DNA of 64,000 nucleotides from an uncultured Chloroflexia bacterium. Its GTDB lineage: Bacteria; Chloroflexota; Limnocylindria; QHBO01. The stretch lies in NCBI GenBank assembly GCA_963814375.1, contig CAWFCQ010000005.1, positions 192,001 to 256,000 on the forward strand. The letters run 5' to 3'. Both the position numbers and the translations under genes were made by a program. This document shows, in pieces, positions 25,496-61,640 of this stretch (position 1 is its first letter; the number at the start of each line of letters is the position of its first letter). Under the pieces are notes generated by a model. That model was given only the letters and a program-made list of their open reading frames with translations. It ran no database searches and was not told the origin of the DNA.

Positions 25496-28355
25496 TCACG
25501 GGCCGCGCTCGCGCGGCAGCCCCACGAGCGTGAGCCGAGGCGGTTCGTCATCGTCCGCAGAGCTCGGTGCCGACGCCGCCTCGCCCGACCCGGCCGCCAG
25601 CGGCGGCGTTCCCTGATGTCGCCAGGCAAGAGTGCCCGCGATCGTGACCAGCGCTGCGATGCCCAGCAACCCGGCGGCGAGGACGTTCCCGGCGCCCTGT
25701 CCATGCAGGCTGGCGGCAGCCTGGGCGGCAGCGCCGTCCACCGTGCCCTTCCCGATCGAGTCGCTCCCACGGGATCGCAGGAGCGCCGGAGCGGGACGCA
25801 GGCCACCGCACGGGACCAGGATGCGCCCCGGGTCACTCAGGCCGATGCCGGTCACGGCGGCCACGCCACTCGGCCGACGCTGCTCGTCACCGCACCTGAT
25901 GTCGAGCGCGACCCCGAGCCGCTCGAGATGGAGCGTCGGCTGCCGCGCGGGTCCGGCGACACGGCCCACGACGGCGACCCACGCCGGGGATGCGCCCGGC
26001 GAGAGCGAGGCACGTGGGCTTGCCGGCTGAGCCGTGCCGAGAAGGACGTCGTCCGGCTCGGTGCCGAGTGCCACCAGGGTGAGCCCCGTGACGGCGTGCG
26101 TGCCGACGCGTCGAAGTCCCTCGAGCTCGACGGCCACCGGTGGTCGCCGCGGGCCGAGGACCGCCCGGAGGCGCTGGAGAGAACCACGCTCGATGGCGAC
26201 GAGTCGCGCCCCGTCCCAGAGGAGCCCGGCCAGGCCGAGCTCCGGCCACGGCGCGACGACCAGGGTGGCCCCGATGCGCAGGCCATCCGCACCGGCGACA
26301 TCCAGCGCGTCGAGCCCCGCCGTCGGTTCACCCGAGGCCGGCCCGCCGTCATCGGATGACCCGGCGGAGCCGGATGGGCCGCCGGTCGCGCCCGCGACGA
26401 TGCGAAGGTCCGTGGTGCTCCGCGGCCAGACCCGGTAGCCACGCAGGGGCTGCGCCCCGGTCGTCTCCTGTCCCAGCGCGCCGACCACCTCGACCCACGC
26501 GCCGGCCACGAGGGAGTCGCGCTCGGCGCCGATCGCCGCTGAGACCGCGATCCGGAGCGGTCCGCTGCCGTCGTCGATCTCGAACGAGACGCTGCCACTC
26601 GATGCCTTTCGCGCGTTCGCGACCAGGGCGCCGCGCACCGTGACGAGGTGCGCCTCGAGCGCCTCCGCCGCGCTCCCGGTGCGGATCCGAGCCGGCGACG
26701 GAGGACTGCCCGATCCGATCTTGATCGGCGCCTCCGTCACGCGAATCGTCTCCATCCCGCTCTTCGTCGATCTCGTGCCGGCCACCTCCAAAAGCTGCCC
26801 CAGGGTCAGCCGGCCGACGTCATCGCCAAGCCGCAGCAGGATGGCGCCCGATCCGTCCTGGATGATTGCGGACGACTCGTCGACGACGCCGGTGGGAAGC
26901 GTCACGACGCCGCGCACGCGGGCACGGGCGTTCTTCGGGAGGGCTCGGGCGCCCTCGATGGTCAGCAGCGCGCCGGGGGCGGCGGACGACGCCGGGCTTT
27001 CGGTCGGGGAACCGGGCGGAATCGGGGTCGCTGTCGGGGAGCCGGGCTCGATGCGCATGATGTCGGCGGCGTCGCGCGGCATCACGCGATACCCCGCGGT
27101 GCCCGAGCCGGACGAGTCGCGCTGACCGGCGACCCCATTGAGCTCGAGCCCGACGCCGGCCTTCCAGATGGTGGTGTCGATCCCCGTGTCCGTGCCGACC
27201 AGCACGCGAGTCGGCCCGGATCCGTCGTCGACATCGAACGCCACGCCCGTGGTCAGGGTGGTCGCGCCGCCGATGATCGTCCCGGCGATACGCACCAGCT
27301 CCCCCTCGGCCTCCTCGCCAACCGACCCCGTCGGCACGAGCAGGGGTGCCGGGGCGGTTCCCGGCCCGACACGTCACGACGGCCTGACCATCGGCGCGCA
27401 GGGTGCGCTGGGCGAAGCGGTCGTCGATCTCGCCGGTGATGCGAAGCAGCGTGCCGCGCGTGAAGGCGCCATCGGTGACGAGCACCGCGATGCCGCCGCT
27501 GGCGTCGGCCACGAAGCCTCCCCCATCGTGGAAGCCGGACCCCGTGAGCGCGACGCCCTCGATCGTCAGCTCGGTCCCGTCGGCTGCCGAGCGCGCCGCG
27601 GCGATCGGCGTGGCGGGGGGCGGGATCGGCGTGGGCTCCGGTGGGACTGGAGTCGGGATGGGTGTTGGGACGGGCGGGATCGGCGTCGAGACCGGGTCGC
27701 CGCCGCCGGGCGCCGGGGTCGGCGGCGAGGTGAGGTTCTGTGGCTCGGGGACCACGCGCGCCACGAAGTCGGACGCGTTGTCGTCGGTGTCGTGTGACGA
27801 CCCGAGGTCTCCGCCCGGCAGCCGCTCGATGCTGCTACCGGCGTCCGGGACGACGGAAGAGTTTCCCTCGCGCCAGGTGCTGGTGGCCGTGCCCCATCCG
27901 ACGGCGTCGATCGCCGATGTTGCGCCCATGATCCGAATGGCGACGCTCCCGCCAGTCGCAGCCATACCGCTGGCGTAGAGCGCATCGGCGATCGGGGCGA
28001 AGGCACCGGCCTCGTTGGCGACGAGCACGTGTCCGCCCGGTGGGACGCTCGGGGCGCCGGCGTCCCACGCGGTCCGGCGGCTGATCGTCGCCCCGCTGGC
28101 AGTGACGTAGATCAGCTCCAGGCCTTCGAGCGGCAGCGACGACGCGGTGGGGTTGTGGAGCTCGATCAGCTCGTCCGATGCGCTCGCACCGCCGGTAACG
28201 ACCTCGCTGACCACGAGATGGTCCGCGGGCGCCGCGGTCGCGCCACCCGGAAGACCGAAAGGGATCGACAGGCTGCCGAGGACGATCAGGGCCAGGATCC
28301 AGGCGCGAGCGCGTCGGGATTGCAGGCGGGGCGAAGGCTGGACGGCAACGGGCAT
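25496..28355 (-). CDS. Secreted, C-terminally anchored protein: lamin-tail domain, Pro-rich linker and OB-fold repeats; apparent frameshift near 27370
   Basis: Signal peptide; HLVVSEV..DELIELHNP (lamin-tail domain); repeated 'V.V.G...D(D/G)SG..I' OB-like units; C-terminal TM followed by WRH. Confidence 0.75.
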
Positions 28356-38179: not shown

Positions 38180-41100
38180 TCAGCGGAACATGCGTTGCTG
38201 TTTCGCGAGGTCGAGCCGCTCCGGCGGTCGGTCGAGGGTCTCGTCCACGCTCCGGAGCCGCTGCGCGACGACATTGAGCACCGCGCCCTCGACCTGGAGC
38301 CGCCCGTCGATGACGAGCAGCGGATGCCGGTGCAGCAACGCCCGATGCGCCTGGTACACCTTCGGACGCAGGGTGACGTTGATCATCCCGGTCTCGTCCT
38401 CGAGCGCGATGAACACGAAGCCCTTCGCCGTCATCGGGTGCTGGACGCTGACCGCCAGGCCCGCCAGACGGATGGTGGACCGATCGCGCAGCCGGGCCGC
38501 ATCGGCCACGGAGATCACCCCGCGCGAGGCCAGGCGCTCGCGGAAGAGCTCGACGGCATGAAGGTTCGGCGCGACGCCGGTGTCGCGGTAGTCGGCGGCC
38601 ACCTGCTCGGCATCGGTCATCGGCGGCAGTGAGGCGCCCAGCGCGCGCTGCGCGTCATCGGTCAGTCCCAGCGCCGGGTGCGCCGGGTCAGCGTCGGCCA
38701 GGGTGGTGCGCAGCTGCCAGAGAAGCTCGCGGCGGGGCGAACCGGTCCAGTCGAAGGCGCCGATGCTGATGAGCCGCTCAACCACCTGCTCGCCGAGCCC
38801 GGTGCGGGCGACGAAGTCGCGGATCCCCGCGTACGGGCCTCGAGCGCGTTCACGTTCCAGCGTCTCGCGCGCGGACTCGTCGATCCCCTTCACCTGGCGC
38901 AGGCCCAGGCGAATCGCGTAGGTGTCGGGCGAGCCATTGCACGGGGTGAAGGCATCGGCCACGGAACGCGGCGTGGATGGCCGCTCGTTGCAGGAGGTGG
39001 CACTGGCGACGATCGAGACCCCGGATCTCGCCGCTTGTTGGCCGTTATTGCCGCCGGATGAAATCGAGGGCGCCGGCGAAGGCAAAGGACGTGTGTCGTG
39101 CTCCCAGGCGGATTCGTTGACGTCGATCGGCAGGACGCGGATGCCGTGGCGCTTCGCGTCGTTGATGACCACCGCGGGCGAGTAGAAGCCCATCGGCTGG
39201 TTGTTCAGCACGCCGACGGTGTAATGCGCGGGCCAGTAGTGCTTCAGCCAGGCGGTGTCGTAGCTGATCTTGGCAAAGGCGGCGGCGTGGGCGCGGGCGA
39301 AGCCGAACTCGGCGAAGGCGGAGCACTTCTGGAAGAGCTCCTCGGCCTGCTCGTCGGTCAGGCCGGTGCGCATGGCGCCACCGATGAAGCGCGGCCGCTC
39401 CGCCTGCATCTTGGCGTGCGACCGATGAGAGCCCATCGCCTTGCGAAAGATGTCGGCCTCGACCGCGGTGTAGCCGCACACCTCGATCGCGACCTGCATC
39501 ACCTGCTCCTGGTAGAGGATCACGCCGAGGGTGTCCTCCAGGATCGGCCGCAGGCTCTCGTGCGCATAGGTCACCTCCTCCTCGCCGGCCCTTCGTCGCA
39601 GGTACGGATGCACCGCGTTGCCCTGCACCGGGCCGGGCCGGATGATCGCGACCTGGACCACGAGATCCTCGAAGCGCTCTGGCCGAGCCTTGGGCAGCGC
39701 CTGCATCTGGGCGCGACTCTCGATCTGGAACATGCCGACCGTGTCGGCCGCCTGGATGGAGCGAAACACCTCGGGATCGTCGTGCGGGAGCGAGTCGAGG
39801 TCGATGCGGCTTCCCGTGTCGCGCTCGACCCGGTCGAGGGCGTCGCTGACCACGCCGAGCGTCCGCAGGCTGAGAAGATCGATCTTCACGAGGCCGAGCT
39901 GCTCGATGTCCTCCTTGTCGTACTGGGTGACGACCCGATTGGGCATGGTGGCGCGCTCGATCGGGACGAGGTCGATCAGGGGCGTGCGGGTGACGAGCAT
40001 CCCACCGACGTGGATGCCGAGGTGGCGCGGGTAGCCGTCGATCTCGGCGCACAGCTGGAGCAGCCACTGCCAACGATTGCGTGGCGGGTGGGCATCGTGG
40101 GAAACCTGTGAATGGTAAGAGTTGCCGTTGAGCGGAGCTAACGGCCAACTTGAGTTCCCTCCGTTCCCATCGGTTGCTCCCGAGTGCAACCGGTGGGCAT
40201 CCAGGGCGTCAATCTCGTCCCAACTTCGCCGATAGTTCCGGTCAGAGAAAACTCCGGGCCCAGCACCACCAACCCCCACTTCCGGCACGACCGGAATTCG
40301 CCGGCGCTCCTCGACCGGCATCCCGCTCTCGGGATCGAGATGCACGACCCGAGGCCGCTCGCTTGACGGTCCCGGCGACCCGTTGTCGCGCGGCGTCGGC
40401 AGTCGGAGCTCGCCGCCCGAAAGCTCGCCTGAGCGCGCGTACCGCTTCGTTTCCTGTGCCTCGTGCTTCACCGTCGTGACCGATGCGTCGAGCACCCGCG
40501 GCTTGCGCGGCGGCGACCAGTGGCCCTGACCGACCGGCTGCGGATCGAGAACCGGCCGCGGGCGATGGTTCCACGACGAGTCGGAGGCCTTGTGCACGAG
40601 GCTGGGATCGGCGCGACCATCGTTCCCGGGCGGGATGGCGGCGGCGGCCATGTCGATCCCCAGCTCCTCGAACAGCCAGGCGAACGACCCGTCAAGCGCC
40701 AGGTCGCGAGCGACGTCGCCCGCCTCGCGGGTGTCGAGCGCCTTGGCCAGCGCGTCGATCCCCTCGGGCGGGAAGCCGAGCGCCTTGGCCACCTCGCGCA
40801 CCGCGTTCCTGGCCCGGTAGGTGACGATCGTGCAGACCATGGCGGAGTGGTCGGGGCCGTACGTGTCGTAGACGTACTGGATGACCTCCTCGCGCCGGTT
40901 GACGTCGAAGTCGATGTCGATGTCCGGCAGCGCGCGCGCCTCGTTGATGAAGCGCTCGAAGAGGAGCTTGTGCTCGATCGGGTCGACCTTGGTGATGCCC
41001 AGGCAGTAGGCCACGATCGAGTCGCCGGCGCTCCCCCGCCCCTGGCCGATGATCTTCCCCTCCCTCGCGAACTCCATCAGGTCCCACACGATGAGGAAGA

Positions 41101-42259
41101 ACTCGGCGAGGTTCGTGCGCTCGATGACGTCGAGCTCGTGAGTCAGCTGCTTGAGCGCCTGCTTGGTAACCGGCCGGTAACGGACCAGTAAGCCGCGATG
41201 GGCAAGCTGATACAGATATGAGAACGCGGTCTCCCCCTCCGGCACGCTGAAGCCGGGAAACCGATAGCGCTCGAAGCCGAGCTCCAGCCGGCACGCCTGA
41301 CCGATGTCCGCGCTGCGCGCCAGGCCGGCCTCCCACGCCCGGCGGCTGCGCGCATCGGGCAGCGCCGCACCGATGACGGCCAGCTCGGCCCCGGTCTTGA
41401 GCCGGTACTCCGCGTTCGGCAGGAGCAGCTCGCGCGCCTCCTCGAGCGTCGCCCCATGGCGGATGCAGACGAGCACGTCCTGGAGCCGGTGCCCCGCCGG
41501 ATCGGCGTAGTGGACCTCGTTGGTGACCACCGTCGGCAGCCCTGCGCCGTGCGCCAGGTCGGCAAGCTGGGCTATGAGCCAGTCGTCGTCGGGCTGGAGG
41601 TGGTGACTGAGCTCGATCGCAAAGTCGCCGGCTGGAAAGTGGCTGCCCCAGGCCTGGGCCGCGGCCAGCGCACGCTCGCGCTCCCCTCCCAGGAGATGGC
41701 GCGGCACCTCGCCGTTGCGGCAGCCGGAGAGGCCGAAGAGATGGCCGCGAGCCTCGTCGAGCGCCGCGGTGACCAGCGAGCGCTCGAAGACCGGGAACTG
41801 CTTCTCGCCTGCCAGGTGGCCGCGGCTCGCCAGCCGGGAGAGGGCGGTGTAGCCGTCGACGTCCCGCGCGAGAAGGACGAGGTGGTCGCCCGGGATCGGG
41901 CCGGCATGGTGCTCCCCCGGCCAGCCGCGGCTCGCATCTGGTCCGCGCAGCGGATCGTTGAGCTTTCGGCCACGATGCGCCAGGCGCAGCTCGTCGTCGG
42001 TGCGCGGGATCGCGAGCTCGAGCCCCACGATCGGCCGCACCGGGGCGAGGCCGGCCGCGCGGGCCGCATCGGTCTCGGTCTCCTGGGCCGCCTTCCACAT
42101 GCGGACCGCGGCATACAGCCCGGCGTGGTCGGTGATGGCCAGCGAACCGATCCCGAGCTGGGCAGCTCGGGCAATCAGCTCCTCGGGATGGCTGGCGCCG
42201 TCGAGGAAGCTGAAGTTGCTGTGCGCGTGGAGCTCGCAGTAGCCGTCCGGCATTGCCAT
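38180..42259 (-). CDS. dnaE2: Error-prone DNA polymerase DnaE2 (ImuC) with internal insertions
   Basis: PHP domain HAHSNFSFLDG; GRGSA; PDIDIDF; PRHLGIHVGG; FQIESRAQ; IIRPGP; LNNQPMGFY; LEDETG; C-terminal RMFR; LexA box upstream. Confidence 0.95.
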   Translation of the reverse strand: MAMPDGYCELHAHSNFSFLDGASHPEELIARAAQLGIGSLAITDHAGLYAAVRMWKAAQETETDAARAAGLAPVRPIVGLELAIPRTDDELRLAHRGRKLNDPLRGPDASRGWPGEHHAGPIPGDHLVLLARDVDGYTALSRLASRGHLAGEKQFPVFERSLVTAALDEARGHLFGLSGCRNGEVPRHLLGGERERALAAAQAWGSHFPAGDFAIELSHHLQPDDDWLIAQLADLAHGAGLPTVVTNEVHYADPAGHRLQDVLVCIRHGATLEEARELLLPNAEYRLKTGAELAVIGAALPDARSRRAWEAGLARSADIGQACRLELGFERYRFPGFSVPEGETAFSYLYQLAHRGLLVRYRPVTKQALKQLTHELDVIERTNLAEFFLIVWDLMEFAREGKIIGQGRGSAGDSIVAYCLGITKVDPIEHKLLFERFINEARALPDIDIDFDVNRREEVIQYVYDTYGPDHSAMVCTIVTYRARNAVREVAKALGFPPEGIDALAKALDTREAGDVARDLALDGSFAWLFEELGIDMAAAAIPPGNDGRADPSLVHKASDSSWNHRPRPVLDPQPVGQGHWSPPRKPRVLDASVTTVKHEAQETKRYARSGELSGGELRLPTPRDNGSPGPSSERPRVVHLDPESGMPVEERRRIPVVPEVGVGGAGPGVFSDRNYRRSWDEIDALDAHRLHSGATDGNGGNSSWPLAPLNGNSYHSQVSHDAHPPRNRWQWLLQLCAEIDGYPRHLGIHVGGMLVTRTPLIDLVPIERATMPNRVVTQYDKEDIEQLGLVKIDLLSLRTLGVVSDALDRVERDTGSRIDLDSLPHDDPEVFRSIQAADTVGMFQIESRAQMQALPKARPERFEDLVVQVAIIRPGPVQGNAVHPYLRRRAGEEEVTYAHESLRPILEDTLGVILYQEQVMQVAIEVCGYTAVEADIFRKAMGSHRSHAKMQAERPRFIGGAMRTGLTDEQAEELFQKCSAFAEFGFARAHAAAFAKISYDTAWLKHYWPAHYTVGVLNNQPMGFYSPAVVINDAKRHGIRVLPIDVNESAWEHDTRPLPSPAPSISSGGNNGQQAARSGVSIVASATSCNERPSTPRSVADAFTPCNGSPDTYAIRLGLRQVKGIDESARETLERERARGPYAGIRDFVARTGLGEQVVERLISIGAFDWTGSPRRELLWQLRTTLADADPAHPALGLTDDAQRALGASLPPMTDAEQVAADYRDTGVAPNLHAVELFRERLASRGVISVADAARLRDRSTIRLAGLAVSVQHPMTAKGFVFIALEDETGMINVTLRPKVYQAHRALLHRHPLLVIDGRLQVEGAVLNVVAQRLRSVDETLDRPPERLDLAKQQRMFR
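38933..39067. mobile_element. Diverged palindromic element, copy 3 (in frame within dnaE2)
   Basis: CGGCCA and TGGCCG(TTA) arms at family spacing (1 nt shorter); central GTTGC-N8-GCAC; ATCTCG near the right arm. Boundaries approximate. Confidence 0.6.
40119..40254. mobile_element. 136-bp palindromic MITE-like element, copy 1 (in frame within dnaE2)
   Basis: 30-bp imperfect TIRs GAGTTGCCGTTGAGCGGAGCTAACGGCCAA / TTCGCCGATAGTTCCGGTCAGAGAAAACTC; central hairpin CCCATCGGTTGC-N8-GCAACCGGTGGG. Confidence 0.8.
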
Positions 42260-42272
42260 CGGACGACCGATG

Positions 42273-42290
42273 ATAGAACGTTTGTTCTAT
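42273..42290. promoter_or_regulatory. LexA (SOS) box upstream of dnaE2
   Basis: ATAGAACGTTTGTTCTAT (GAAC-N4-GTTC) between TTCCCT (-35) and TATCAT (-10), 17-bp spacer on the minus strand. Confidence 0.9.
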
Positions 42291-42843
42291 TCAGGGAAGA
42301 CCGTACGTCCCTTCGTCACGGCTGAGCCGATACAGCACGTGCCGCACGAGGTGCGGGTACTTCGCCGCGTCGACGCGTGGATGGTCGAAGTCGCCGGCGG
42401 GATCGCGCGACGAGGCCGATGCGCTCCATCACCCGCCACGATCGCTCGTTGGCAGGCACGGTGAAGGAGACGATCTCGTCGAGGCCCACCTCCTCGAAGC
42501 CGAACCGAAGCGCCTCGCGCGCGCCCTCCGTCGCGTAGCCGTGCCCCCAATGGGCCCGCGCCAGCCGCCAGCCGACCTCGACCATGCCGGGAGCGACGAA
42601 GTCGGCGGGCCACAGCCCGACATACCCGACGAACGGCGCCACGCCGGGCACCTCGACCGCCCACTGCGCCCAGCCGTGCTCCTCCCAGTGGCGCTGGATG
42701 CGATCGACGAAGTCGTTGCTCTGCTCCGCCGTCATGAGCCCCTGCATGTGCTCCATCACCGCGGGGTCCGCGTTCATCGCGGCGAACGCATCGCGGTCGG
42801 CATCAGTCCAGCGGCGCAGGAGCAGTCGCTCGGTGCGGATCAC
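42291..42843 (-). CDS. RimJ/RimL-type GNAT acetyltransferase; apparent frameshift near 42405
   Basis: IRTERLLLRRW, VEVGWRL..WGHGYATE, NERSWRVMERIG; the shifted frame gives DFDHP..HVLYR. Confidence 0.85.
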
Positions 42844-44135
42844 GCCGGCGCGGCGAGGCGGATACGGCGTCCCTCGAACGCGAGGACGGCGGCCGGAATC
42901 AGGGTGAGGCCGATCCCGACGAACCCGAGCACGGTGTACGAGGCGGCCGCGACGACGAGGCCGGACGCGAGGCTGGCGAAGGCGGCCGTGCCCCAGGTCA
43001 GCGTGTCGGCGATGCCCTGCACCCGCGTCCGCTCGCCGAGGGCGAGCCCATGGCTCACCAGCGACGAGGCGGCGACGAAGCAGAGGCTCCAGCCGAAGCC
43101 GAGCAGGAAGAGGGCGAAGGTGAGCACCAACCCGCCGTCGGGCGGCGCCAGCGCGGCGAGCAGCGCGGCGGCGGCCAGCCCGATCAGCCCGGCCGCGATG
43201 ACCGCGAGGCTGCCGAATCGATCGGTGAGGCGCCCGCTGATCGGCGAGAGGCCGAACATGCCAAAGGTGTGGGCCGACAGCACGATGCCGACGGTCGCCA
43301 GGCCGTGGCCATGGTCGATCAGGTGGAGTGGCGTCATCGTCATGATCAGGACCATCACCACCTGCGCGCCGACGAGGCTGACGAGCGCCACCGCGACCGA
43401 GGGCCGACGGAGGAGCTCGCCCATGGACGGGGCCGGTCCCGTATCGGTGTCGTGGGATCGCAACGCCGACGGATCGGCCAACGCGTACGGCTCCGGTCGC
43501 AGCATGAGCGCCGCCACCACCCATGCCAGGCCGATGAAGATCACGGTCACCGCGTACGGCCCGGCCAGCTCGGGCAGCCCGATCGAGGTTGCGAGCGCGC
43601 CAGCCGGGGCGGTCAGGTTCGGGCCGATGACGGCACCCACCGTCGTCCCCCACACCACCATGCCGATGGCCGAGGCGCGCCGCTCCGGCGAAGCCATGTC
43701 CGCCGCGATGTAGCGACCGAGATTGCCCGCGGCGTTCGCAAATCCGGTGAAGCCGCTGCCGAGCAGGAGGAGCGGGATCGACGCCGCCAGCACCGAGCCG
43801 AAGACGATCGCGCCGCCGAGCACGCCGACCGCCAGCCCCAGCAGCAGCCCGTACCGGCGTCCGAATCGCAGCATCAGCAGCGCGAGCAGGCTCGCGGCGA
43901 TGGCGGTGCCGATCGTCGTCACCGTGGTCGGCAGCCCGCCGTAGGCCGCGCTGCCGGACAGCTCCGCCGCGACCAGCGTGCCGACCGTGACGGCCGCGAT
44001 GTAGCCGGTGCTGCCGAGGGCGGCGATGACGAAGAGGACCCAGCGCATGCGGCGGCGCAGCCGCGGCAGCTCATCGGCGGAGAACTGCGCCGCGGTTGCC
44101 TCGGCCCGCTCGATGGCCTGCGGCTGGACGCTCAT
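42840..44135 (-). CDS. MFS transporter
   Basis: About 12 TM; RFGRRYGL and GRLTDRFG motifs. Confidence 0.9.
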   Translation of the reverse strand: MSVQPQAIERAEATAAQFSADELPRLRRRMRWVLFVIAALGSTGYIAAVTVGTLVAAELSGSAAYGGLPTTVTTIGTAIAASLLALLMLRFGRRYGLLLGLAVGVLGGAIVFGSVLAASIPLLLLGSGFTGFANAAGNLGRYIAADMASPERRASAIGMVVWGTTVGAVIGPNLTAPAGALATSIGLPELAGPYAVTVIFIGLAWVVAALMLRPEPYALADPSALRSHDTDTGPAPSMGELLRRPSVAVALVSLVGAQVVMVLIMTMTPLHLIDHGHGLATVGIVLSAHTFGMFGLSPISGRLTDRFGSLAVIAAGLIGLAAAALLAALAPPDGGLVLTFALFLLGFGWSLCFVAASSLVSHGLALGERTRVQGIADTLTWGTAAFASLASGLVVAAASYTVLGFVGIGLTLIPAAVLAFEGRRIRLAAPA

Positions 44136-45010
44136 GCCAGCGCTTCCAAGGTGGGGAGATGCTCGGTCGTCCCGTCGGGGGCGATCGGGATGACCGCGAC
44201 GTGATCCGCGCCGGCGGCCAGCAGCGCCTCGGTCCGGGAGCGAGCGTCTGCCTCCGAGCCGATCGACACCATCGCGTCGACGAGCCGGTCGCCGCCGGGC
44301 AGCTGCCAGTCGGCGGCCTCGAAGCCCTGGAGCTCCCACGACGCGTGATAGGTCGGCGTGCGCAGGTACGGCTTCAGGTACGCCCGGGCCGCGTCGCGAT
44401 CGTCGCCGAGCACGACCGGCAGCGTCACCGCCAGCGTCGGGCGGTGGTCGGATGCCGCCCTGTCGAGCCGCGCCCGAATCCAGGCCACCCGCTCGGGTGT
44501 CACGAGGTACGGAAAGGCGCCGTCGGCTTCGGTGGCGGCGAGGTCGGTCATGCGCTCGCGCAGGGCGGCAATGAGCAGTGGTGGGTCGTCTTCGATGGAT
44601 CCGGGCCCCCGGTAGATGGCGGTCCGATAGGCCGCGAGGTACTCCCGCATGCGGGTCAGCGGTCGCTCGAAGTCGTGCCCGCGCAGCTTGGTGGCGAGGT
44701 GCGGGTGGCTCACGCCGAGGCCGAGCACGAAGCGGCCCTCGGTCGCCTCCGACAGGGTGCGGGCGCCCATGCGGGTCGCCTGCGCATCGCGGCCCCAGAT
44801 GTTCACGATGCTGGTGCCGAGAACCAGGCGCGACGTCTCGCCGGCCAGCATGCCGAGGAAGGTGAACGGCTCGCGGCCGACGGTCTCGGGCACCCACAGG
44901 CTGCCGTAGCCGAGCTCCTCGACGCGCCGCGCGTAGGCGCGTGCATCGGTCGCCGAGAGCGTGTCGAGATGTCCCCAGACGCCGATGCGCCCGAGGTCCG
45001 GGGCGGTCAC
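44132..45010 (-). CDS. F420-dependent LLM-class oxidoreductase (TIGR03620-like)
   Basis: LGRIGVW, EELGYGSLWVPE, GTSIVNIW, RFVLGLGVSH, AGADHV. Confidence 0.85.
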   Translation of the reverse strand: MTAPDLGRIGVWGHLDTLSATDARAYARRVEELGYGSLWVPETVGREPFTFLGMLAGETSRLVLGTSIVNIWGRDAQATRMGARTLSEATEGRFVLGLGVSHPHLATKLRGHDFERPLTRMREYLAAYRTAIYRGPGSIEDDPPLLIAALRERMTDLAATEADGAFPYLVTPERVAWIRARLDRAASDHRPTLAVTLPVVLGDDRDAARAYLKPYLRTPTYHASWELQGFEAADWQLPGGDRLVDAMVSIGSEADARSRTEALLAAGADHVAVIPIAPDGTTEHLPTLEALA

Positions 45011-45020
45011 CCGCGGAATG

Positions 45021-45800
45021 CTACCCGCTGGAATCCAATTCGAATCGATAGCGCAGGAACAGCTCGTCGTCGTGGCGCATGACGCTGACGAGGCGTCCGC
45101 CGCGCGGGCTCGATTCGAAGGGCGAGCCGCCCTCGATGGGCGCGATCATCGGCAGCGCATCGGTGCCGACCAGCATCGCCCCGGCGGTCCAGTACAGCTC
45201 GTCGATCAGGCCCGCCTCGAGGAAGGCCGCGTTGATGTGCGGGCCGCCCTCCAGCAGAAGGCTGCGAATGCCGCGCTCGGCGAGGCGCGACAGCACCCAC
45301 GACGGAGACGGCCGACCCTCGGGCGCGCGCAGCAGGTCCGTGCCGGCCGGCGCGTCCTCGATCGGGTTCCCCCGTCCGACGACCAGGATGCGCGCCTCGT
45401 CACCGGTGAACCAGCGCGCGCCGAGGTCGATCGGCTCCTCGCCGGCGATCATCACGCCGGTCGGGTTCGGCGGCCTGCCCTCGGCGGAGCGCCGGCGCTC
45501 CAGCGCGGATCCGACCCGCAGCCAGACCCCGGTCGCGCGCAGCGTCCCGACACCACTGCCGACGGCGTCGAAGGCGGCGCGGTAGTGGCGCATCAGCATC
45601 CGATCCGCGCGGCTGCCGAGCCCGTCGGCGGTGCCGTCCAGCTGTGCCCGCCCGTCGATGGTGGTGACCATGTTGATCGCCACCAAGGGCCGATCGGACG
45701 GCGGCTCCGGCAGGGCGAACCCGGCCATCGCCTCGTCCAGGGTCAGGTCCGTCGCGGGATCGGGCCAGAGGCAGTCGACGCGGTGGGCGGTATCTGTCAC
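45021..45800 (-). CDS. RibD C-terminal / dihydrofolate reductase family protein
   Basis: INMVTTIDG, GVGTLR, LLLEGGPHIN, GLIDELYWT. Confidence 0.85.
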   Translation of the reverse strand: MTDTAHRVDCLWPDPATDLTLDEAMAGFALPEPPSDRPLVAINMVTTIDGRAQLDGTADGLGSRADRMLMRHYRAAFDAVGSGVGTLRATGVWLRVGSALERRRSAEGRPPNPTGVMIAGEEPIDLGARWFTGDEARILVVGRGNPIEDAPAGTDLLRAPEGRPSPSWVLSRLAERGIRSLLLEGGPHINAAFLEAGLIDELYWTAGAMLVGTDALPMIAPIEGGSPFESSPRGGRLVSVMRHDDELFLRYRFELDSSG

Positions 45801-45810
45801 GTGGCCGATG

Positions 45811-46245
45811 CTAGCCGAGCTCGCCCTTCGCCTCGACGGGGTGGTACTCGTCGGCATTCTCGAGGGCGTCGGCGTCGAACGCGATCTGCACCTTCGAGCT
45901 GGTGAGGCTGATGACCGAATCGGCCACGACGACGCGCGTCGTGCCATCGCGATACGGCGTCACGGCGATCCCGTGGAAGATGCCCTCCGTCTCGGTGCCG
46001 AGCATCGCCTCGACGCGCCCGACGTCCTCGCCGCTGGGACCCACCACGAGCGTTTCCGCCTCGACATAGCTCCACGCGACCGGGTCGTCGGGGCCTGGCA
46101 GGTCCAGCTCGGCCGCGCTCGGCTCGCCGGGCGTGCCCGTGTCATCCGCCGAGCTGCCCGGTGGGAGCGTGTCGATCTCGGGATCGAGACCGCCCTTCAT
46201 GCCCGGGTCGTCGATGGCGCCCGGCTTCCGATCGAAGTCGTTCAT
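45811..46245 (-). CDS. Acidic hypothetical protein with PRC-barrel-like domain
   Basis: GAGGATGAGG RBS region; V.WSY....VVGPSGEDVGRVEAMLG...GIFHGI. Confidence 0.6.
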   Translation of the reverse strand: MNDFDRKPGAIDDPGMKGGLDPEIDTLPPGSSADDTGTPGEPSAAELDLPGPDDPVAWSYVEAETLVVGPSGEDVGRVEAMLGTETEGIFHGIAVTPYRDGTTRVVVADSVISLTSSKVQIAFDADALENADEYHPVEAKGELG

Positions 46246-46288
46246 GCCCTCATCCTCGCATCAGCGATGCCACGATCGAAGGAACCGA

Positions 46289-47191
46289 TCACAGGAAGAA
46301 CGGCGGCGAGAAGCCGATGAACCGATCGAAGCGGCCAAACGGCCTGCTCGACATGAACAGGTTGAGGAAGCCATCCATGCGCATCCCGCGGCCCATGAGG
46401 TGGCGCATCGCGACCTCGTTGACCATCGGCACCTCGAGCGAGAGGGCGTCGATACCCAGCTCGGCCGCCCGCGTCTCCACGTGGCTCAGGATCGGCGCCA
46501 TGTCGCCCGCCTCGAGCGTTGCGATCGGTCCCATCCCGCCCCGGCTGATGAACGCGTAGCCGATCGCTACGCCATCGCGGCGGTAGAGGTAGCCCTCGCG
46601 GTGCTCGGCGAGCCACCTGAACTCGTCGCCGCGGTCGAACTCGAGCACCGATGCCTCGATCTCGACGAGCTGCGCCATCTCCGCGGACCCGTCGAGGCGG
46701 ATGGCTTCCACGTCCGGGGCGAGCTTGGCGGCGCGAGGCTTCCCCTCGAGCGCCACGATCGGGAAGCGCGCCACCGTGCCGGCGGCGTAGTAGCGGGCCT
46801 GCGCGCGCACGTCAGTGGTGGCGATGATGGCCCGCACCTCGCCGCGCCCTGTGGGAAACGCGTGGGCAATGAGATCGGCGCCCACGCCGGCCGACTGCCG
46901 GTCGGGACGGACGAAGAGCTCGGTGAGCTCGAACAGCGCGCCACGCTCGACGGACCTGGCGTAGCCGATCAGCTCGCCGTCGCGGCCGAGATCTTCCGCC
47001 ACCCACCATTCGGCGGCGTGCTCGGCGAGGAGGTCGTACATCGGGCTCAGCTCGGCCCACAGCTCGTCGCGGTTCGGCTCCCACGGCGATCCCTGACGCG
47101 CGGTGAGATCGCGGATGGCGGGCAGGAAGACGTCGAAGACGGCGCGGGTGTCGTCGGGGGTGCCGCGTCGGAGGCGATACGGCTCGGCCAT
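46289..47191 (-). CDS. GNAT family acetyltransferase
   Basis: LTELFVRPDRQSAGVGADL (acetyl-CoA motif A); leaderless start MAEPY. Confidence 0.8.
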   Translation of the reverse strand: MAEPYRLRRGTPDDTRAVFDVFLPAIRDLTARQGSPWEPNRDELWAELSPMYDLLAEHAAEWWVAEDLGRDGELIGYARSVERGALFELTELFVRPDRQSAGVGADLIAHAFPTGRGEVRAIIATTDVRAQARYYAAGTVARFPIVALEGKPRAAKLAPDVEAIRLDGSAEMAQLVEIEASVLEFDRGDEFRWLAEHREGYLYRRDGVAIGYAFISRGGMGPIATLEAGDMAPILSHVETRAAELGIDALSLEVPMVNEVAMRHLMGRGMRMDGFLNLFMSSRPFGRFDRFIGFSPPFFL

Positions 47192-47211
47192 CTCGCGGAG
47201 GGTAGCAGGCG

Positions 47212-47466
47212 TTAGTCGAAGACCCGCTCGAGGTGCCAGGTGCCGCGAATCTCGTCGAGGAAGATCACCGCGACAAGGCCCGAGCGGGTGACGACCTTGA
47301 AGCAGGCACGGGCCACCGGCTCGCGCCACCAGCCGTCGTCGACCCGCCATCGGTTGCAGATGCCGACCTCGCCGTGATCGGTCCCGTCCAGGTGCAGGCG
47401 CTGCGGGATGCCGGCGGCATCGGTCTCGACCTGCACCAGCGGATGGTCGGGATAGCGGCGGGTCAC
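47212..47466 (-). CDS. Small ImuB-associated protein (DUF6504-like)
   Basis: RWRVDDGWW and W.LERVFD motifs; translationally coupled to imuB. Confidence 0.75.
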   Translation of the reverse strand: MTRRYPDHPLVQVETDAAGIPQRLHLDGTDHGEVGICNRWRVDDGWWREPVARACFKVVTRSGLVAVIFLDEIRGTWHLERVFD

Positions 47467-48652
47467 GAGCCGATGTCCACCAGCCGCGACCGATGCTCCG
47501 GCAGCGCCGCGGTCGGCCGCTCGTTCGTCGCCCGCCAGAGACGGCCCTCACCGAACCGATGCCGGATCCGCTCGAGCGACCATCGCAGCTCCTCCCAGCG
47601 CCCGGCGCGTGCCTCGAAGGCGGAGAGCTGGCGCGTGGCGGGATCGGCAAGGCGATCGAACGCCAGGTGCACCGATGCGACCCGCGGCTCTTCGGGCTCT
47701 TCGGCCTCTTCCTCTGCGAGTTGCCCGAGAGCGGAGCTAACGGCCAACTTCGAGCCTCTGCCTGGCCGAGAGTTGCCCACAGCCGCAACAGGTCGCCAAG
47801 GAACCGTGCCATCTGGTCCCTTCTTGGCCGTTAGTTCCGGTGGGCGGCAACTTCGGGCGCGCGCGGCGGCCTCGAGGCGCGACAGCAGCAGCCGCGCGAT
47901 CCAGTCCGGCTCGAGGGCCGGCTGGGGGAAGGGCTGCGCCACGCGCAGCATCGGCGCATCCTCGAGGACGAGCTCGAGCGTCGCCCGCCCCGGCGCAAGG
48001 CGCCGTTCGCGCAGCCGATCGCACAGGTCGGCGGCGAGCCGCCGCAGCGTGAGGCTCACCGCGCCGATCCCGTCGAGCGGCACCTCGAACTCCTCCGCCG
48101 CCTCGATCCGCTCGGGGCGCCGGCGGGGAACGATCGGCCGAGGGTCGTGGCCGCGGGCGAGGGCCTGGAGCCGCTCCCCGACCGGGCCGAACTGGGCGCC
48201 GACCGCGGAGCGCGGCAGACCGGCCAGCTGCCGCATCTCGGTCAGGCCGAAGAGACCGAAGCGCTGTCGCGTGGCCGCATCGGCGGGCAGCAGGGCCAGC
48301 GGCAGGTCGTCCAGCTCGTCGCGCTCCAGGATGCGGAAGGCGGCCGGCGCCTCGGGGCGCTCGAAGCGCGCCAACCGGGCGGCGAGCGTCGCCAGCCAGC
48401 GGTTGTCGCCGATCCCGCAGCGCACGGGCATCGGCGCCACCGCCCGGGTCAGCATCACCGCCCGCGCCGCGACCCGGCGTTCCGGCCCCCACATCGGCTC
48501 CAGCCCGGTGACGTCGACGAGCGCCACGCCGACGTCCACCGCCTCGACCCGCGGGGAGAGGTCGTCGAGTGCGTCGAGCATCGGCTCGAAGGGCGCCGTC
48601 TCCGCGTCGGGCGCGCGCAGCTCGGGCCAGGCGAGCACCAGCAGGCGGTCAT
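47463..48652 (-). CDS. imuB: ImuB-like Y-family polymerase homolog; apparent indel just after the ATG
   Basis: SPRVE....VALVDVTGL...WG.E; CGIGDNRWLATLAAR; L.DLPLALLP; LPRSAV.AQFG. The ATG overlapping the imuA stop is 1 nt out of frame. Confidence 0.8.
47718..47853. mobile_element. 136-bp palindromic MITE-like element, copy 2 (in frame within imuB)
   Basis: 30-bp TIRs GAGTTGCCCGAGAGCGGAGCTAACGGCCAA / TTGGCCGTTAGTTCCGGTGGGCGGCAACTT; central GTTGC-N8-GCAAC. Confidence 0.82.
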
Positions 48653-49443
48653 CAGGCGCCCACCACGCGCAGCGCCGGACGCTCCTCGGCTTGCTCCACC
48701 CCGCGTGGCGTTGCCGAGGCCGCCAGCAGCGGATCAATGCGCCTCCCCTCGCCGAACCACAGGTCGAGCTCGGCCGATCCGCCGGCCAGGGCCCAGCGCT
48801 GGCGCTCCACCACCGCGCGCGTGCGCTGGCCGACGAGGTCGCGGCCGATCGCCAGCCAGGCGGACCGATGCAGCGCCACCCGCACGCTCGCCGCCGCCCC
48901 GGCCACGGCCCGCCCGGCGGGGGCAAGGACCAGCACCGAGGTGGCTCCCGAGCGGGCCAGCAGCGTGCCGAGCCGATCCAGCGCGCGACGGTCCGGCACG
49001 GCGCGCTCGCCGAGGTCGAGGACGAGCGCGTCGATGAGCTCCGAGCGGCCGAGCCACGCGGCCAGCTCGATCGCCTCCTGCGGGTCGCGCGGGCGGGCGA
49101 CGAGGAGCCAGTCGAGGCTCACCCCGAGGCGCGCGGCCACGGCCGGGTCGAGGGTCCCGTCGAGGTCGAGCCAGGCCGCAAGCCCACCCGTCGCCTGGGC
49201 TGCGGCCAGCGTCCCGAGGGCCAGGGTCGAGGCGCCGCACCCCAGCGGCCCGTCCAGGAGCGCCAGCCCGCCGCGCGGCCAGCCGCCGGTGCCGAGCGCG
49301 GCGTCGAGCGTCGGATATCCGGTGGGGACGGGGGGCCGCGCTCGCTCCGGCATCGGCTCCGGGTCGCTTCCGCGACGCAGTGTCAGGCCGCGGGCACGCA
49401 GCGTCTCGAGCGCATCGGTGAGGGCCGCATCGGTCCGGGTCAT
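48652..49443 (-). CDS. imuA: RecA-like ImuA protein
   Basis: PTGYPTLDAALGTGGWPRG; degenerate P-loop GCGAST; LDPAVAARLGV; LexA box upstream. Confidence 0.85.
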   Translation of the reverse strand: MTRTDAALTDALETLRARGLTLRRGSDPEPMPERARPPVPTGYPTLDAALGTGGWPRGGLALLDGPLGCGASTLALGTLAAAQATGGLAAWLDLDGTLDPAVAARLGVSLDWLLVARPRDPQEAIELAAWLGRSELIDALVLDLGERAVPDRRALDRLGTLLARSGATSVLVLAPAGRAVAGAAASVRVALHRSAWLAIGRDLVGQRTRAVVERQRWALAGGSAELDLWFGEGRRIDPLLAASATPRGVEQAEERPALRVVGA

Positions 49444-49456
49444 TGGACTCTCGATC

Positions 49457-49474
49457 ATAGAACAGATGTTCTAT
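49457..49474. promoter_or_regulatory. LexA (SOS) box upstream of imuA
   Basis: ATAGAACAGATGTTCTAT; minus-strand promoter TTCCCG-N17-TATGAT. Confidence 0.9.
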
Positions 49475-49508: not shown

Positions 49509-49584
49509 GGGGATGTAGCTCAGCTGGGAGAGCACCGCGTTCGCATCGCGGGGGTCAGGGGTTCGAGTCCCCTCATCTCCACCA
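49509..49584 (+). tRNA. tRNA-Ala (CGC)
   Basis: Cloverleaf with acceptor GGGGATG/CATCTCC and G3:U70; anticodon loop TT-CGC-AT; TTCGAGT T-loop; encoded CCA; TATACT -10 at 49490. Confidence 0.97.
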
Positions 49585-61317: not shown

Positions 61318-61640
61318 CGCGTTGACGCGGGAGCCAGTACGCGCAAAGACCTCGTTTTCGAGCGAGCCGGGACGGTGGAAGCCGGCAAACGAGGAGCGCG
61401 GAACTCGCCCGTCGAGCAGCCCGGTGACGAGCCGGGCCGGGTGGCGCCCGATATCCGCGCTGACGAGAGGACCGACCGAATCCGTGGGGTTGTAGCTCAG
61501 CTGGGAGAGCACCTGCATGGCATGCAGGGGGTCGGGGGTTCGAGTCCCCCCAGCTCCACCACCCCATTGCGGGGAATGGCGGTCAAGCTCAGGTGGTACC
61601 GCGAAGCGCCCCTTCGTCCAGAGCGACGGAGGGGTTTGTC
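61318..61640 (+). ncRNA. T-box riboswitch (Leu, CUC specifier)
   Basis: Stem I with GA kink-turn, AGTA/GAA loop E, AGCGA bulge, GGTGGAA terminal loop and specifier CTC at 61404; T-box AGGTGGTACCGCG at 61591-61603; antiterminator; terminator CCCCTTCGTC/GACGGAGGGG-TTTGT; leuS downstream. Confidence 0.9.
61486..61561 (+). tRNA. tRNA-Ala (GGC), located inside the T-box leader
   Basis: 76-nt cloverleaf with acceptor GGGGTTG/CAGCTCC and G3:U70; anticodon loop AT-GGC-AT; TTCGAGT; encoded CCA. Confidence 0.97.

Follow-up and report, generated by a model that had tools for sequence, protein, structure and literature searches.

What is a palindromic repeat doing inside the coding sequences of error-prone polymerase genes, and why inside those genes in particular? 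The question is raised by a 64-kb stretch of DNA, referred to here as the window, in which dnaE2 and imuB between them carry three palindromic segments (copies A, B, and C; Table 1). The dnaE2 product has the Pfam domains PHP, DNA_pol3_alpha (split), finger, HHH_6, and OB, and 860 homologs of ImuB were recovered at E<=1e-20. Because these homologs are about 393 aa long and begin MTRLL, imuB probably begins near 48,650 and overlaps the end of imuA', a gene that itself carries no copy of the element. An earlier, sequence-only reading of the window had regarded the host genes as SOS-regulated. This is plausible, as the motif GAAC-N4-GTTC has only two matches in 64 kb, directly upstream of imuA' and dnaE2, and the longer palindrome that includes the first of these is presumably a LexA box. 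No LexA-type box is found within the arms of the element, where GAAC and GTTC both occur but are separated by about 90 nt.

Table 1. Element copies, host genes, and LexA-box-like palindromes in the 64-kb window
Feature	Position	Strand	Description
Copy A	40119..40254		In-frame palindromic element at about aa 670-713 of dnaE2
Copy B	47718..47854		Palindromic element in frame in imuB
Copy C	about 38922..39067		Degenerate, in frame in dnaE2, about aa 1066-1112
dnaE2	38180..42259	-	Error-prone homolog of Pol III alpha (1359 aa); carries copies A and C
imuB open frame	47463..48926	-	Hosts copy B; weak IMS match
imuA' (RecA-like)	48652..49458	-	First gene of imuA'-imuB unit; Pfam RecA 5e-24
LexA-box-like palindrome ATAGAAC-N4-GTTCTAT	49460..49471		1 nt upstream of imuA' ATG
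Second LexA-box-like palindrome	42276..42287		16 nt upstream of dnaE2 ATG

The observation that palindromic copies lie inside mutasome genes is confirmed. Copies A and B have an exact 22-mer in common, with two matches in the window and none in 100 shuffles, and a 16-nt degenerate arm core has four mismatch-free occurrences in the window, in both arms of A and both arms of B. The central GTTGC-N8-GCAAC palindrome described for these two copies is visible in their sequence, as is the stretch that they share before the right arm, and both are also recovered by a repeat search. An nhmmer profile built from ten copies gave scores of 95 bits for A and 110 bits for B, matched copy C weakly (38963-39053, E=3.9e-4), and found nothing else, in agreement with the earlier statement that the window holds no further copy. 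Copy C, first described as a diverged third member, is indeed degenerate. With two mismatches allowed, the arm core occurs once within it, at 39038-39053, against a chance expectation of 0.27, and its fold is no better than that of shuffled sequences (z of +0.6 and +1.2), whereas copy A folds with z-scores of -2.9 (mRNA strand) and -4.0 (opposite strand). Comparison with orthologs bears out its identity: approximately 142 bp corresponding to copy C are missing from the 81%-identical dnaE2 of locus L010, which does have an orthologous copy A; the Pfam HHH_6 match (a 90-position profile) spans 141 aa over copy C and 93 aa in L010; and the site-C peptides of other dnaE2 orthologs match bona fide copies of the element by tblastn.

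All three copies are in frame, A and C being open in dnaE2 and B in the imuB ORF, and their codons are as atypical as had been suggested, with GC3 values of 0.66 (A) and 0.77 (C) compared with 0.91 in the remainder of dnaE2, and of 0.58 (B) against 0.92 for the imuB flanks. The same orientation had also been assigned to all copies; profile scores agree (A gains 29 bits and B 35 bits on the plus strand relative to the minus strand), but orientation says little because the element is near-palindromic. Copies A and B are read in different frames, such that one and the same arm yields PPELTAKK in imuB and DRNYRR in dnaE2, and no element-encoded peptide is therefore conserved across the two host genes.

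The copies in the window belong to a family of repeats specific to Candidatus Limnocylindria, a group of soil Chloroflexi. A scan of GTDB species genomes with a degenerate 22-nt arm pattern returned 45 loci, 31 of which are titled Limnocylindria, Limnocylindrales, Chloroflexia, or Chloroflexota; locus L041 also has a full copy, and 13 loci of other taxa have the 22-mer match only. In total, 38 full copies were recovered from 29 loci together with the window. They are 133-156 bp long, and each consists of inverted arms of approximately 33 bp with a strongly conserved core, a central small palindrome, and an interior that varies apart from a few conserved boxes. The fold z-score is below -2 in 34 of the 38 copies (mean -4.2). 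However, RNAalifold on 37 copies recovered the arms alone, with no convincing covariation, and the self-complementarity of the interior under global alignment is barely higher than that of shuffles (0.61 versus 0.57). An Rfam search (E<=1) of 38-50 kb of the window and of five loci returned no family for the element; the rows labelled 'tmRNA' in that output are tRNA-Ala genes.

Copies from the same genome have interiors in common (L037a/b, L028b/c, and L043/44), and up to eight copies were seen in one assembly, DASTYP (two each in L005, L007, and L022, and one each in L013 and L045). The proposal of a non-autonomous, MITE- or REP-like element stands insofar as this is a palindromic repeat family, mostly intergenic and found in many genomes. 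A search for target-site duplications found none, and no direct repeat flanks any of the 38 copies. Instead, the palindrome extends 1-2 nt beyond the copy ends, as GA..TC or CG..CG. No transposase, RAYT-type, or Y1 gene was found in 81 flanking ORFs or in 30 ORFs of the window, and the sole trace of a mobile element in the flanking set is a weak IS1 fragment at L023; thus, it is from distribution alone that we infer the elements to be mobile. The literature search returned no paper that describes repeats in Limnocylindria or repeat elements within imuB or dnaE2, and text searches of PMC6511836 and PMC3919608 gave nothing useful on linkers or insertions.

The sequence-only reading had held that the element is confined to mutasome genes. 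For the family as a whole this is incorrect, as 31 of the 38 full copies are intergenic and adjoin diverse housekeeping genes, 15 of them starting within 30 nt of the 3' end (stop codon) of a gene; a copy at L005 lies upstream of the real gene start, as judged by GC3. For coding copies it holds, because all seven full copies in coding sequence are in imuB (the window, L009, L026, L030, and L045) or dnaE2 (the window and L010), and an additional remnant, at L038, is again in imuB. A search of 1.84 billion cluster representatives with a profile of the frame-a peptide yielded a single protein at E<=0.001, an ImuB; a word-index search of longer proteins with the peptide of the GTNGQ...WPLVPL frame gave eight candidates, none of them significant, which is weak evidence. 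The scan sees only copies with an intact arm, and old, decayed coding insertions in other genes would therefore escape it.

Where the copies sit within their host proteins agrees with the expectation that the inserts occupy loops. Site A of dnaE2 falls in a hypervariable loop flanked by EERRR.RVVPE and H.PRNRWQ, site C lies between WEHDTR and YAIRLGL, and both face short loops of a solved Pol III alpha, that of Thermus (2HPI), with query residues 510-728 aligned opposite chain residues 527-553 and residues 1054-1115 opposite 880-886. The imuB site separates the Y-family-like core from the C-terminal part. In a model of ImuB that is poor overall (mean pLDDT 55.9) and was used for local contrast around the insert only, the insert is a low-confidence linker of pLDDT about 28, with no secondary structure, between a helix and a strand at pLDDT 80-89.

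Turnover at these sites is fast. The insertion of the copies had implied empty sites, and orthologs supply them: in addition to L010, which is empty at site C, that site is empty in 75 of 102 dnaE2 orthologs, site A is short in 30 of 102, and in ImuB orthologs of 350-364 aa the insert is missing or reduced to in-frame remnants. Where the insert is partly deleted, the frame is always preserved, as in the imuB of L038, where the 5' half of the element is gone and the 3' arm is intact. Furthermore, unrelated classes of peptide occupy the same sites in other orthologs: at the imuB site, 23 of 105 end in IGIWQE-like motifs; at site A of dnaE2 a second insert class is found in 51 of 102 orthologs, and one protein, P0152, has both classes in tandem. 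When the second-class peptides were compared by tblastn with about 350 kb of DNA, no element-like copy was found, the best match being a Pro/Thr-rich low-complexity linker at 27571-27747 of the window. Gene trees (FastTree, with many weak forks) require at least 36 changes of insert state at site A of dnaE2 and at least 48 at the imuB site. The proteins P0013 and P0074 are identical outside the insert and have unrelated inserts, a contrast that simple decay would not readily produce and that suggests recombination or active replacement.

The inserts themselves evolve in a non-coding style. GC3 of the imuB copies is 0.49-0.67, compared with 0.87-0.92 in their flanks, and the identity of the interior, at 0.60, is near the 0.57 of flanking four-fold sites. 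The arm cores are conserved well beyond this, at 0.91 overall and 0.85 at third codon positions. Among amino-acid-invariant codons, 8 of 11 in the arms are also codon-invariant, 5 of them A/T-ending, as opposed to 68 of 221 in the flanks, 2 of them A/T-ending (Fisher P=0.007), a test that is biased upward because its loci were picked by exact arm match. An unbiased protein set gives a weaker contrast, with values of 0.61 and 0.48 for the arms, 0.43 for the interior, and 0.84 for the flanks. In 44 ImuB proteins collected by homology alone, the conserved positions of the insert match the conserved DNA boxes of the family. Across five species, imuB interiors are 0.59 identical (gapless) to one another, versus 0.46 to intergenic copies of the same size class, and, with regard to gene conversion as a possible cause of arm conservation, the arms of the imuB copies are 0.82 identical among orthologs, 0.78 identical to copies of the same genome, and 0.74 identical to copies of other genomes. 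One arm pair is variable (AU 24, GU 7, AC 4, and GC 2) and shows no covariation.

The segments in the window are probably copies of a Limnocylindria-specific, non-autonomous palindromic repeat that is tolerated in frame in the linkers of imuB and dnaE2. The usual home of this element is the spacer just 3' of a stop codon, as for a REP or MITE, and copies probably landed in surface loops or linkers at one imuB site and two dnaE2 sites. Genic copies are free of stops in the host frame and so should be translated, as peptides of about 45 residues that are probably disordered and that the host proteins would tolerate. The addition of in-frame peptide had been proposed earlier, and the frames are indeed open through all genic copies; translation and tolerance are what we infer from this. 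Once occupied, the sites have probably behaved as indel hot spots, at which copies are kept, trimmed in frame, lost, or swapped for other inserts. Passive tolerance does not account for the conservation of the arms at the DNA level, nor does it explain why coding copies are confined to two functionally linked mutasome genes that are preceded by LexA-box-like palindromes. Our leading guess for this confinement is that genes which are seldom expressed and rich in loops tolerate the inserts, with a degree of insertion bias in addition.

An alternative is targeted recurrent insertion, in which the elements and the second insert class would return again and again to fixed sites in the two genes. 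Either a target motif at these sites could draw them in, or transposition could be tied to the SOS state, when imuB and dnaE2 are accessible and being transcribed. Conservation of the arms would then mainly reflect resident copies that are young or refreshed. Three separate sites in two linked genes, with no coding copy elsewhere, fit such targeting, as do the unrelated peptide classes at the same sites in other orthologs, the near-identical proteins that differ in their insert only, the sister pairs on tiny branches with different insert states, and a site C that is empty in L010, the closest ortholog compared as DNA, and filled in more distant ones. We regard recurrent homing as rather unlikely, however, because the imuB interiors of five species are closer to one another than to intergenic copies, and the imuB copies agree in junction, orientation, and frame, both of which fit one old insertion. 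Moreover, the three sites have no common target motif or duplication, and an equally patchy pattern could arise by recombination between populations together with deletions from an ancestor in which both classes were present in tandem. Also unlikely, and slightly more so, is a function in cis that keeps the copies in place. The arms might be bound by a protein of the host or of the element (we know of no binder), or a long hairpin in mRNA or DNA might hold down expression of the mutagenic polymerase, for example by attracting a nuclease or acting as a roadblock. The conservation of arm cores and of their third positions relative to four-fold flanks speaks for such a function, along with the retention of rare A/T-ending arm codons, the match between insert positions in the 44 ImuB proteins and the DNA boxes, the persistence of an intact 3' arm in L038, and the strong fold signal. 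Against it, the arms show no compensatory changes and no covariation at the one variable pair, the insert is lost or trimmed in many orthologs, the codon test carries its ascertainment bias, and no Rfam family matches; the single arm of L038 speaks specifically against a requirement for the hairpin. More speculative still, and improbable as a whole, is a scheme that joins these ideas, in which the sites are dedicated landing pads that at least two kinds of palindromic element occupy, vacate, and take over from one another on a population timescale, the arms are selected cis-sites, and the insert acts as a switch or brake on the SOS mutasome, with transposition coupled to damage.

The sequence-only reading had suggested that the hairpins might act as RNA-level regulators or be excised under DNA damage. 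Removal of the inserts after transcription or translation, as an intron, an intein, or a translational bypass, has the hairpin potential and nothing else in its favour. It is very improbable, since partial deletions always keep the frame; this, along with the frame kept by every genic copy, is the signature of read-through translation. Furthermore, the insert, at about 45 aa, is far below intein size, and Rfam has no intron or other RNA family to match it. The least credible possibility is that the segments are ordinary lineage-specific linkers of ImuB and DnaE2, alike by protein-level conservation or by chance. Their location in variable linkers and the large, lineage-specific expansion of Limnocylindria DnaE2 around site A are what one would expect of linkers, but the same DNA element exists in 31 intergenic copies, which refute this reading, and the different reading frames in the two genes, the non-genic GC3, and the empty sites point the same way.

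The distribution of the element has consequences beyond this locus. Among the DNA examined, and across dozens of species, the sole genes to carry it are damage-inducible error-prone polymerase genes, which is the unusual part of its biology. If targeting or function were to prove true, mobile-element activity would be linked to the machinery of stress-induced mutation; if tolerance is all there is, the inserts mark dispensable loops of ImuB and DnaE2. For annotation, the low-complexity inserts of about 45 residues in these proteins should be recognized as repeat DNA.

Known systems resemble the element to differing degrees. Integron attC sites were considered for the conserved ends, the variable centre, and the ORFs between two copies, and were rejected: copies are single and scattered among housekeeping genes rather than grouped in arrays of cassettes that each end in an attC, and one ORF lies between two copies at only three loci (L005, L023, and L037). 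The likeness to MITEs lies in small size (133-156 bp), terminal inverted repeats (arms of approximately 33 bp in 38 copies), the lack of coding capacity of its own, and several, mostly intergenic copies per genome with interiors alike within a genome; unlike a MITE, the element has no target-site duplication at its 38 copies and no parent IS with the same ends among the flanking and window ORFs scanned. As extragenic palindromes near gene ends, with two inverted arms that form a hairpin, the copies also resemble REPs and REPINs. Long vertical persistence, described for REPINs in two reports (10.1101/2022.05.22.493013, 10.1101/2021.07.10.451892), is a further likeness, and REPINs share with the present element arms that are more conserved than the spacer and the absence of a target duplication. 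They differ in that REP ends bear a GTAG or CGTC tetranucleotide tag (PMC3733652), which is lacking at the ends of our arm consensus. Furthermore, no RAYT (Y1 transposase) gene is present among the 81 flanking and 30 window ORFs. REPINs are not known to lie in frame within genes.

In-frame palindromic 'selfish DNA' in genes is best known from Rickettsia, and its occurrence in free-living soil Chloroflexi widens that picture. As described in PMC10969869 (citing Ogata et al. 2000), Rickettsia palindromic elements (RPEs) are palindromic repeats of roughly 100-150 bp that insert in frame into genes and add a peptide while the protein remains intact, and they do so in many unrelated genes, with 44 insertions in R. 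conorii. The Limnocylindria element belongs to another phylum and has another sequence, and it differs from RPEs in that most of its copies are intergenic and its coding copies are confined to imuB and dnaE2 rather than spread over many unrelated genes. Like RPEs, it leaves the host reading frame open, in all seven full coding copies as well as in copy C and one remnant, and is thus an RPE-like in-frame palindromic element.

Copies A and B, the palindromic elements lying within dnaE2 and imuB, share an exact 22-mer with two matches in the window and none in shuffled sequence, and the four exact occurrences of a degenerate 16-nt arm core in the window are the two arms of A and the two arms of B. 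Both copies fold into long hairpins, with strand-dependent z-scores of -1.9 to -4.0, in agreement with the sequence-only reading that they are related palindromic elements. The further claim of a diverged third copy, C, also in dnaE2, holds in part. Copy C scores weakly (nhmmer E=3.9e-4), has no fold signal, and contains the single occurrence of the 16-nt core found with two mismatches, but an ortholog of 81% identity (L010) lacks this insertion, and peptides at the same site in other dnaE2 orthologs match true element copies. A profile search of the 64-kb window found no further copies, as had been stated.

A 22-position degenerate arm pattern, run once against the GTDB species genomes, matched at 45 loci, 31 of which are titled Limnocylindria, Limnocylindrales, Chloroflexia or Chloroflexota. 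At 13 loci from scattered taxa the similarity is confined to the 22-mer, a number close to that expected from the pattern's information content by our own estimate. One locus titled Gemmatimonadales (L041) carries a full copy at 1095-1229 of a 3.8-kb MAG contig, upstream of an adenylate-cyclase/AAA_16 gene; the contig could be mis-binned, or the element transferred. With a profile made from ten copies that have both arms, 38 full copies were recovered. They form two size classes, near 136 and 146 bp, and have a consensus of terminal GTTGC...GCAAC, arm cores around GGAACTAACGGCCAA, inner TGGCCG and CGGCCA boxes, and a central GTTGC-N8-GCAAC. The fold z-score is below -2 in 34 of the 38, and the interiors differ strongly between genomes and are shared within them (L037a/b, L028b/c, L043/44). 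No Rfam family matches the element, and a literature search turned up no account of elements of this sort, either in this class or in the two host genes. Most of the 38 copies are stop-free in two to four of the six frames, with one frame per arm closed by a TAA or TAG within the arm core; a CTATCGG arm variant abolishes the TAA stop in the frame that dnaE2 uses. This variant is found in both L010, a dnaE2 copy, and L020, which belong to one assembly; two partial copies, which abut or overlap, come after a full one at L020 3846-4189.

Coding and intergenic copies were told apart using stop-to-stop frames filtered by codon-position G+C, Pfam, and tblastn with the window proteins. Because 31 of the 38 copies are intergenic, the earlier statement that the elements occur only in mutasome genes is false for the family; it stands for the coding copies of this sample, all seven of which lie in imuB or dnaE2 (window A and B, the imuB genes of L009, L026, L030 and L045, and the dnaE2 gene of L010), with the caveat that the arm scan detects only copies with one intact arm. 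An element remnant is also kept in the imuB gene of L038. Fifteen of the 31 intergenic copies start within 30 nt of a stop codon, two of these fifteen overlapping the stop, and the genes adjoining copies are unrelated housekeeping genes. One apparently coding copy, at L005, was rejected as such, as it lies upstream of the true start: GC3 rises from 0.64-0.74 ahead of the receiver domain to 0.91-0.94 inside it. The only transposase-like match near copies is a weak IS1 fragment at L023. At three loci two copies bracket a single ORF, encoding an HTH_31 protein (L037 3991-4996), a 232-aa unknown (L023 3005-4032) and a 404-aa unknown (L005 2390-4126), an arrangement that resembles a composite or cassette.

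The imuB copies all share a single junction, between ...AAARAR and ...EPRV, as well as one orientation and one frame. Insert state could be parsed for 105 of 120 ImuB homologs: 46 are element-type, 7 a diverged form, 23 an unrelated class with IGIWQE-like motifs at its end, 15 unclassified, and 14 short inserts of 10-29 residues, several of which start with a remnant SCR..ELT. A poor ImuB model (mean pLDDT 55.9) has its lowest confidence in the insert, about 28, with a helix and a strand at 80-89 on either side. Among 102 full-length DnaE2 orthologs, site A (window aa about 662-722) is element-type in 10, of a second class in 51, other in 11 and short in 30, while site C is empty in 75 and filled in 27, mostly by the element in a third frame. 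Against Thermus Pol III alpha (2HPI), 219 query residues stand opposite 27 chain residues in the site A region, and 62 opposite 7 at site C. Only about 45 of the roughly 219 residues that Limnocylindria DnaE2 has here (aa 510-728, window 40076-40732) are copy A; the remainder of this expansion has a GC3 of 0.83 and is common to orthologs.

The window region is G+C-rich, and the interval between imuB and dnaE2 holds GNAT, RibD_C, luciferase-like, MFS and second GNAT genes; no transposase was found among 30 other window genes, all ordinary housekeeping. The GAAC-N4-GTTC motif occurs just twice in the 64 kb, 5' of imuA' and of dnaE2, in an extended form that resembles the LexA box used by Chloroflexi and Gram-positives. 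With a LexA-like box before each, the split cassette (imuA'-imuB and dnaE2) appears to form two SOS-regulated units. At 48640-48660 the window has an in-frame DDRLL where ImuB homologs start MTRLL, so the imuB start codon is uncertain there and may overlap the imuA' stop. Two tRNA-Ala genes are 85% alike, the one at 49509-49584 adjoining the imuA' promoter region; the Rfam label 'tmRNA' on that gene is a clan-filtering artefact below the gathering score. A tblastn match of an ImuB insert peptide to the low-complexity linker of a lamin-tail ORF was dismissed as spurious.

Genes, elements and motifs located in the window
Feature	Position	Strand	Description
dnaE2	38180-42259	-	open frame, 1359 aa; PHP, split Pol III alpha core, finger, stretched HhH domain, OB fold
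imuB	open frame, end at 47463	-	homologs about 393 aa
imuA'	48652-49458	-	RecA-like
GAAC-N4-GTTC motif	42276-42287		16 nt upstream of dnaE2 start; form ATAGAAC-N4-GTTCTAT
GAAC-N4-GTTC motif	49460-49471		1 nt upstream of imuA' start; form ATAGAAC-N4-GTTCTAT
Copy A	40119-40254		in dnaE2
Copy B	47718-47854		in imuB
Copy C (proposed)	about 38922-39067		in dnaE2
tRNA-Ala	49509-49584		anticodon CGC
tRNA-Ala	61486-61561		anticodon GGC
Lamin-tail ORF	26820-28355	-	lamin-tail domain and long Pro/Thr-rich low-complexity linker

Insert states turn over rapidly. FastTree trees built without insert columns require at least 36 changes at dnaE2 site A, 24 at site C and 48 at the imuB site, although many forks are weakly supported. 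Independently of any tree, the ImuB proteins P0013 and P0074 differ outside the insert by only two substitutions, both adjacent to it, and their inserts, of 57 and 66 residues, are unrelated; the pair P0029 and P0102 is much the same. Such pairs show that replacement, nested insertion or short-tract recombination takes place on the timescale of populations. The second insert class, known here from protein sequence alone, is present in many orthologs at both the imuB site and dnaE2 site A (P0181, for instance), and in one DnaE2 (P0152) both classes occur in tandem.

The best-supported reading is a case like that of the Rickettsia palindromic elements (RPEs), a REP/MITE-like palindromic family with in-frame read-through copies in loops of ImuB and DnaE2. 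Copies would have landed in tolerant loops and would be translated through in the host frame. The genic copies have a GC3 of 0.49-0.77, as against 0.87-0.92 in their surroundings, and the interiors of five imuB copies are about as similar (identity 0.60) as flanking four-fold sites (0.57). Gapless interior identity among imuB copies is 0.59, compared with 0.46 between imuB and intergenic copies of the same size, which fits common descent of the imuB copies. Removal of the insert from RNA or protein is unlikely, because the frame is kept in every partial deletion.

Left unaccounted for by the RPE-like reading are the presence of coding copies solely in two mutasome genes preceded by putative LexA boxes and the retention of arm sequence there. 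Site targeting or SOS-coupled insertion, which is compatible with that reading, we consider fairly unlikely, and a cis function of the arms, also compatible, slightly less likely still. Identity of the arm cores among the five imuB copies is 0.91 overall and 0.85 for third codon positions. Of 11 arm codons with an invariant amino acid, 8 use the same codon throughout the five sequences (5 A/T-ending), compared with 68 of 221 in the flanks (2 A/T-ending; P=0.007), in a test biased by the choice of loci by exact matching of the arm. A set of 44 ImuB proteins collected purely by homology shows the arms (0.61 and 0.48) to be just moderately more conserved than the interior (0.43; flanks 0.84), and the best-kept insert positions coincide with the family's conserved DNA boxes. 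Since no arm covariation was found and the lone arm in the imuB gene of L038 is intact, any constraint would be on arm sequence rather than pairing.

According to the review PMC10969869, RPEs work like the element reported here, but they insert into many unrelated genes, a trait that it lacks. Its size, inverted repeats and multiple copies are those of a MITE, although no target duplication was found. With REPINs, as described in two accounts (10.1101/2022.05.22.493013, 10.1101/2021.07.10.451892), it shares position, hairpin form, the absence of duplication and persistence. However, it carries neither the GTAG nor the CGTC tag that PMC3733652 gives for these repeats, and no RAYT partner was seen in the flanking or window ORFs scanned. 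Because its match to RPE, MITE and REPIN traits is thus mixed, we assign the element to no named family; it is related to known kinds.
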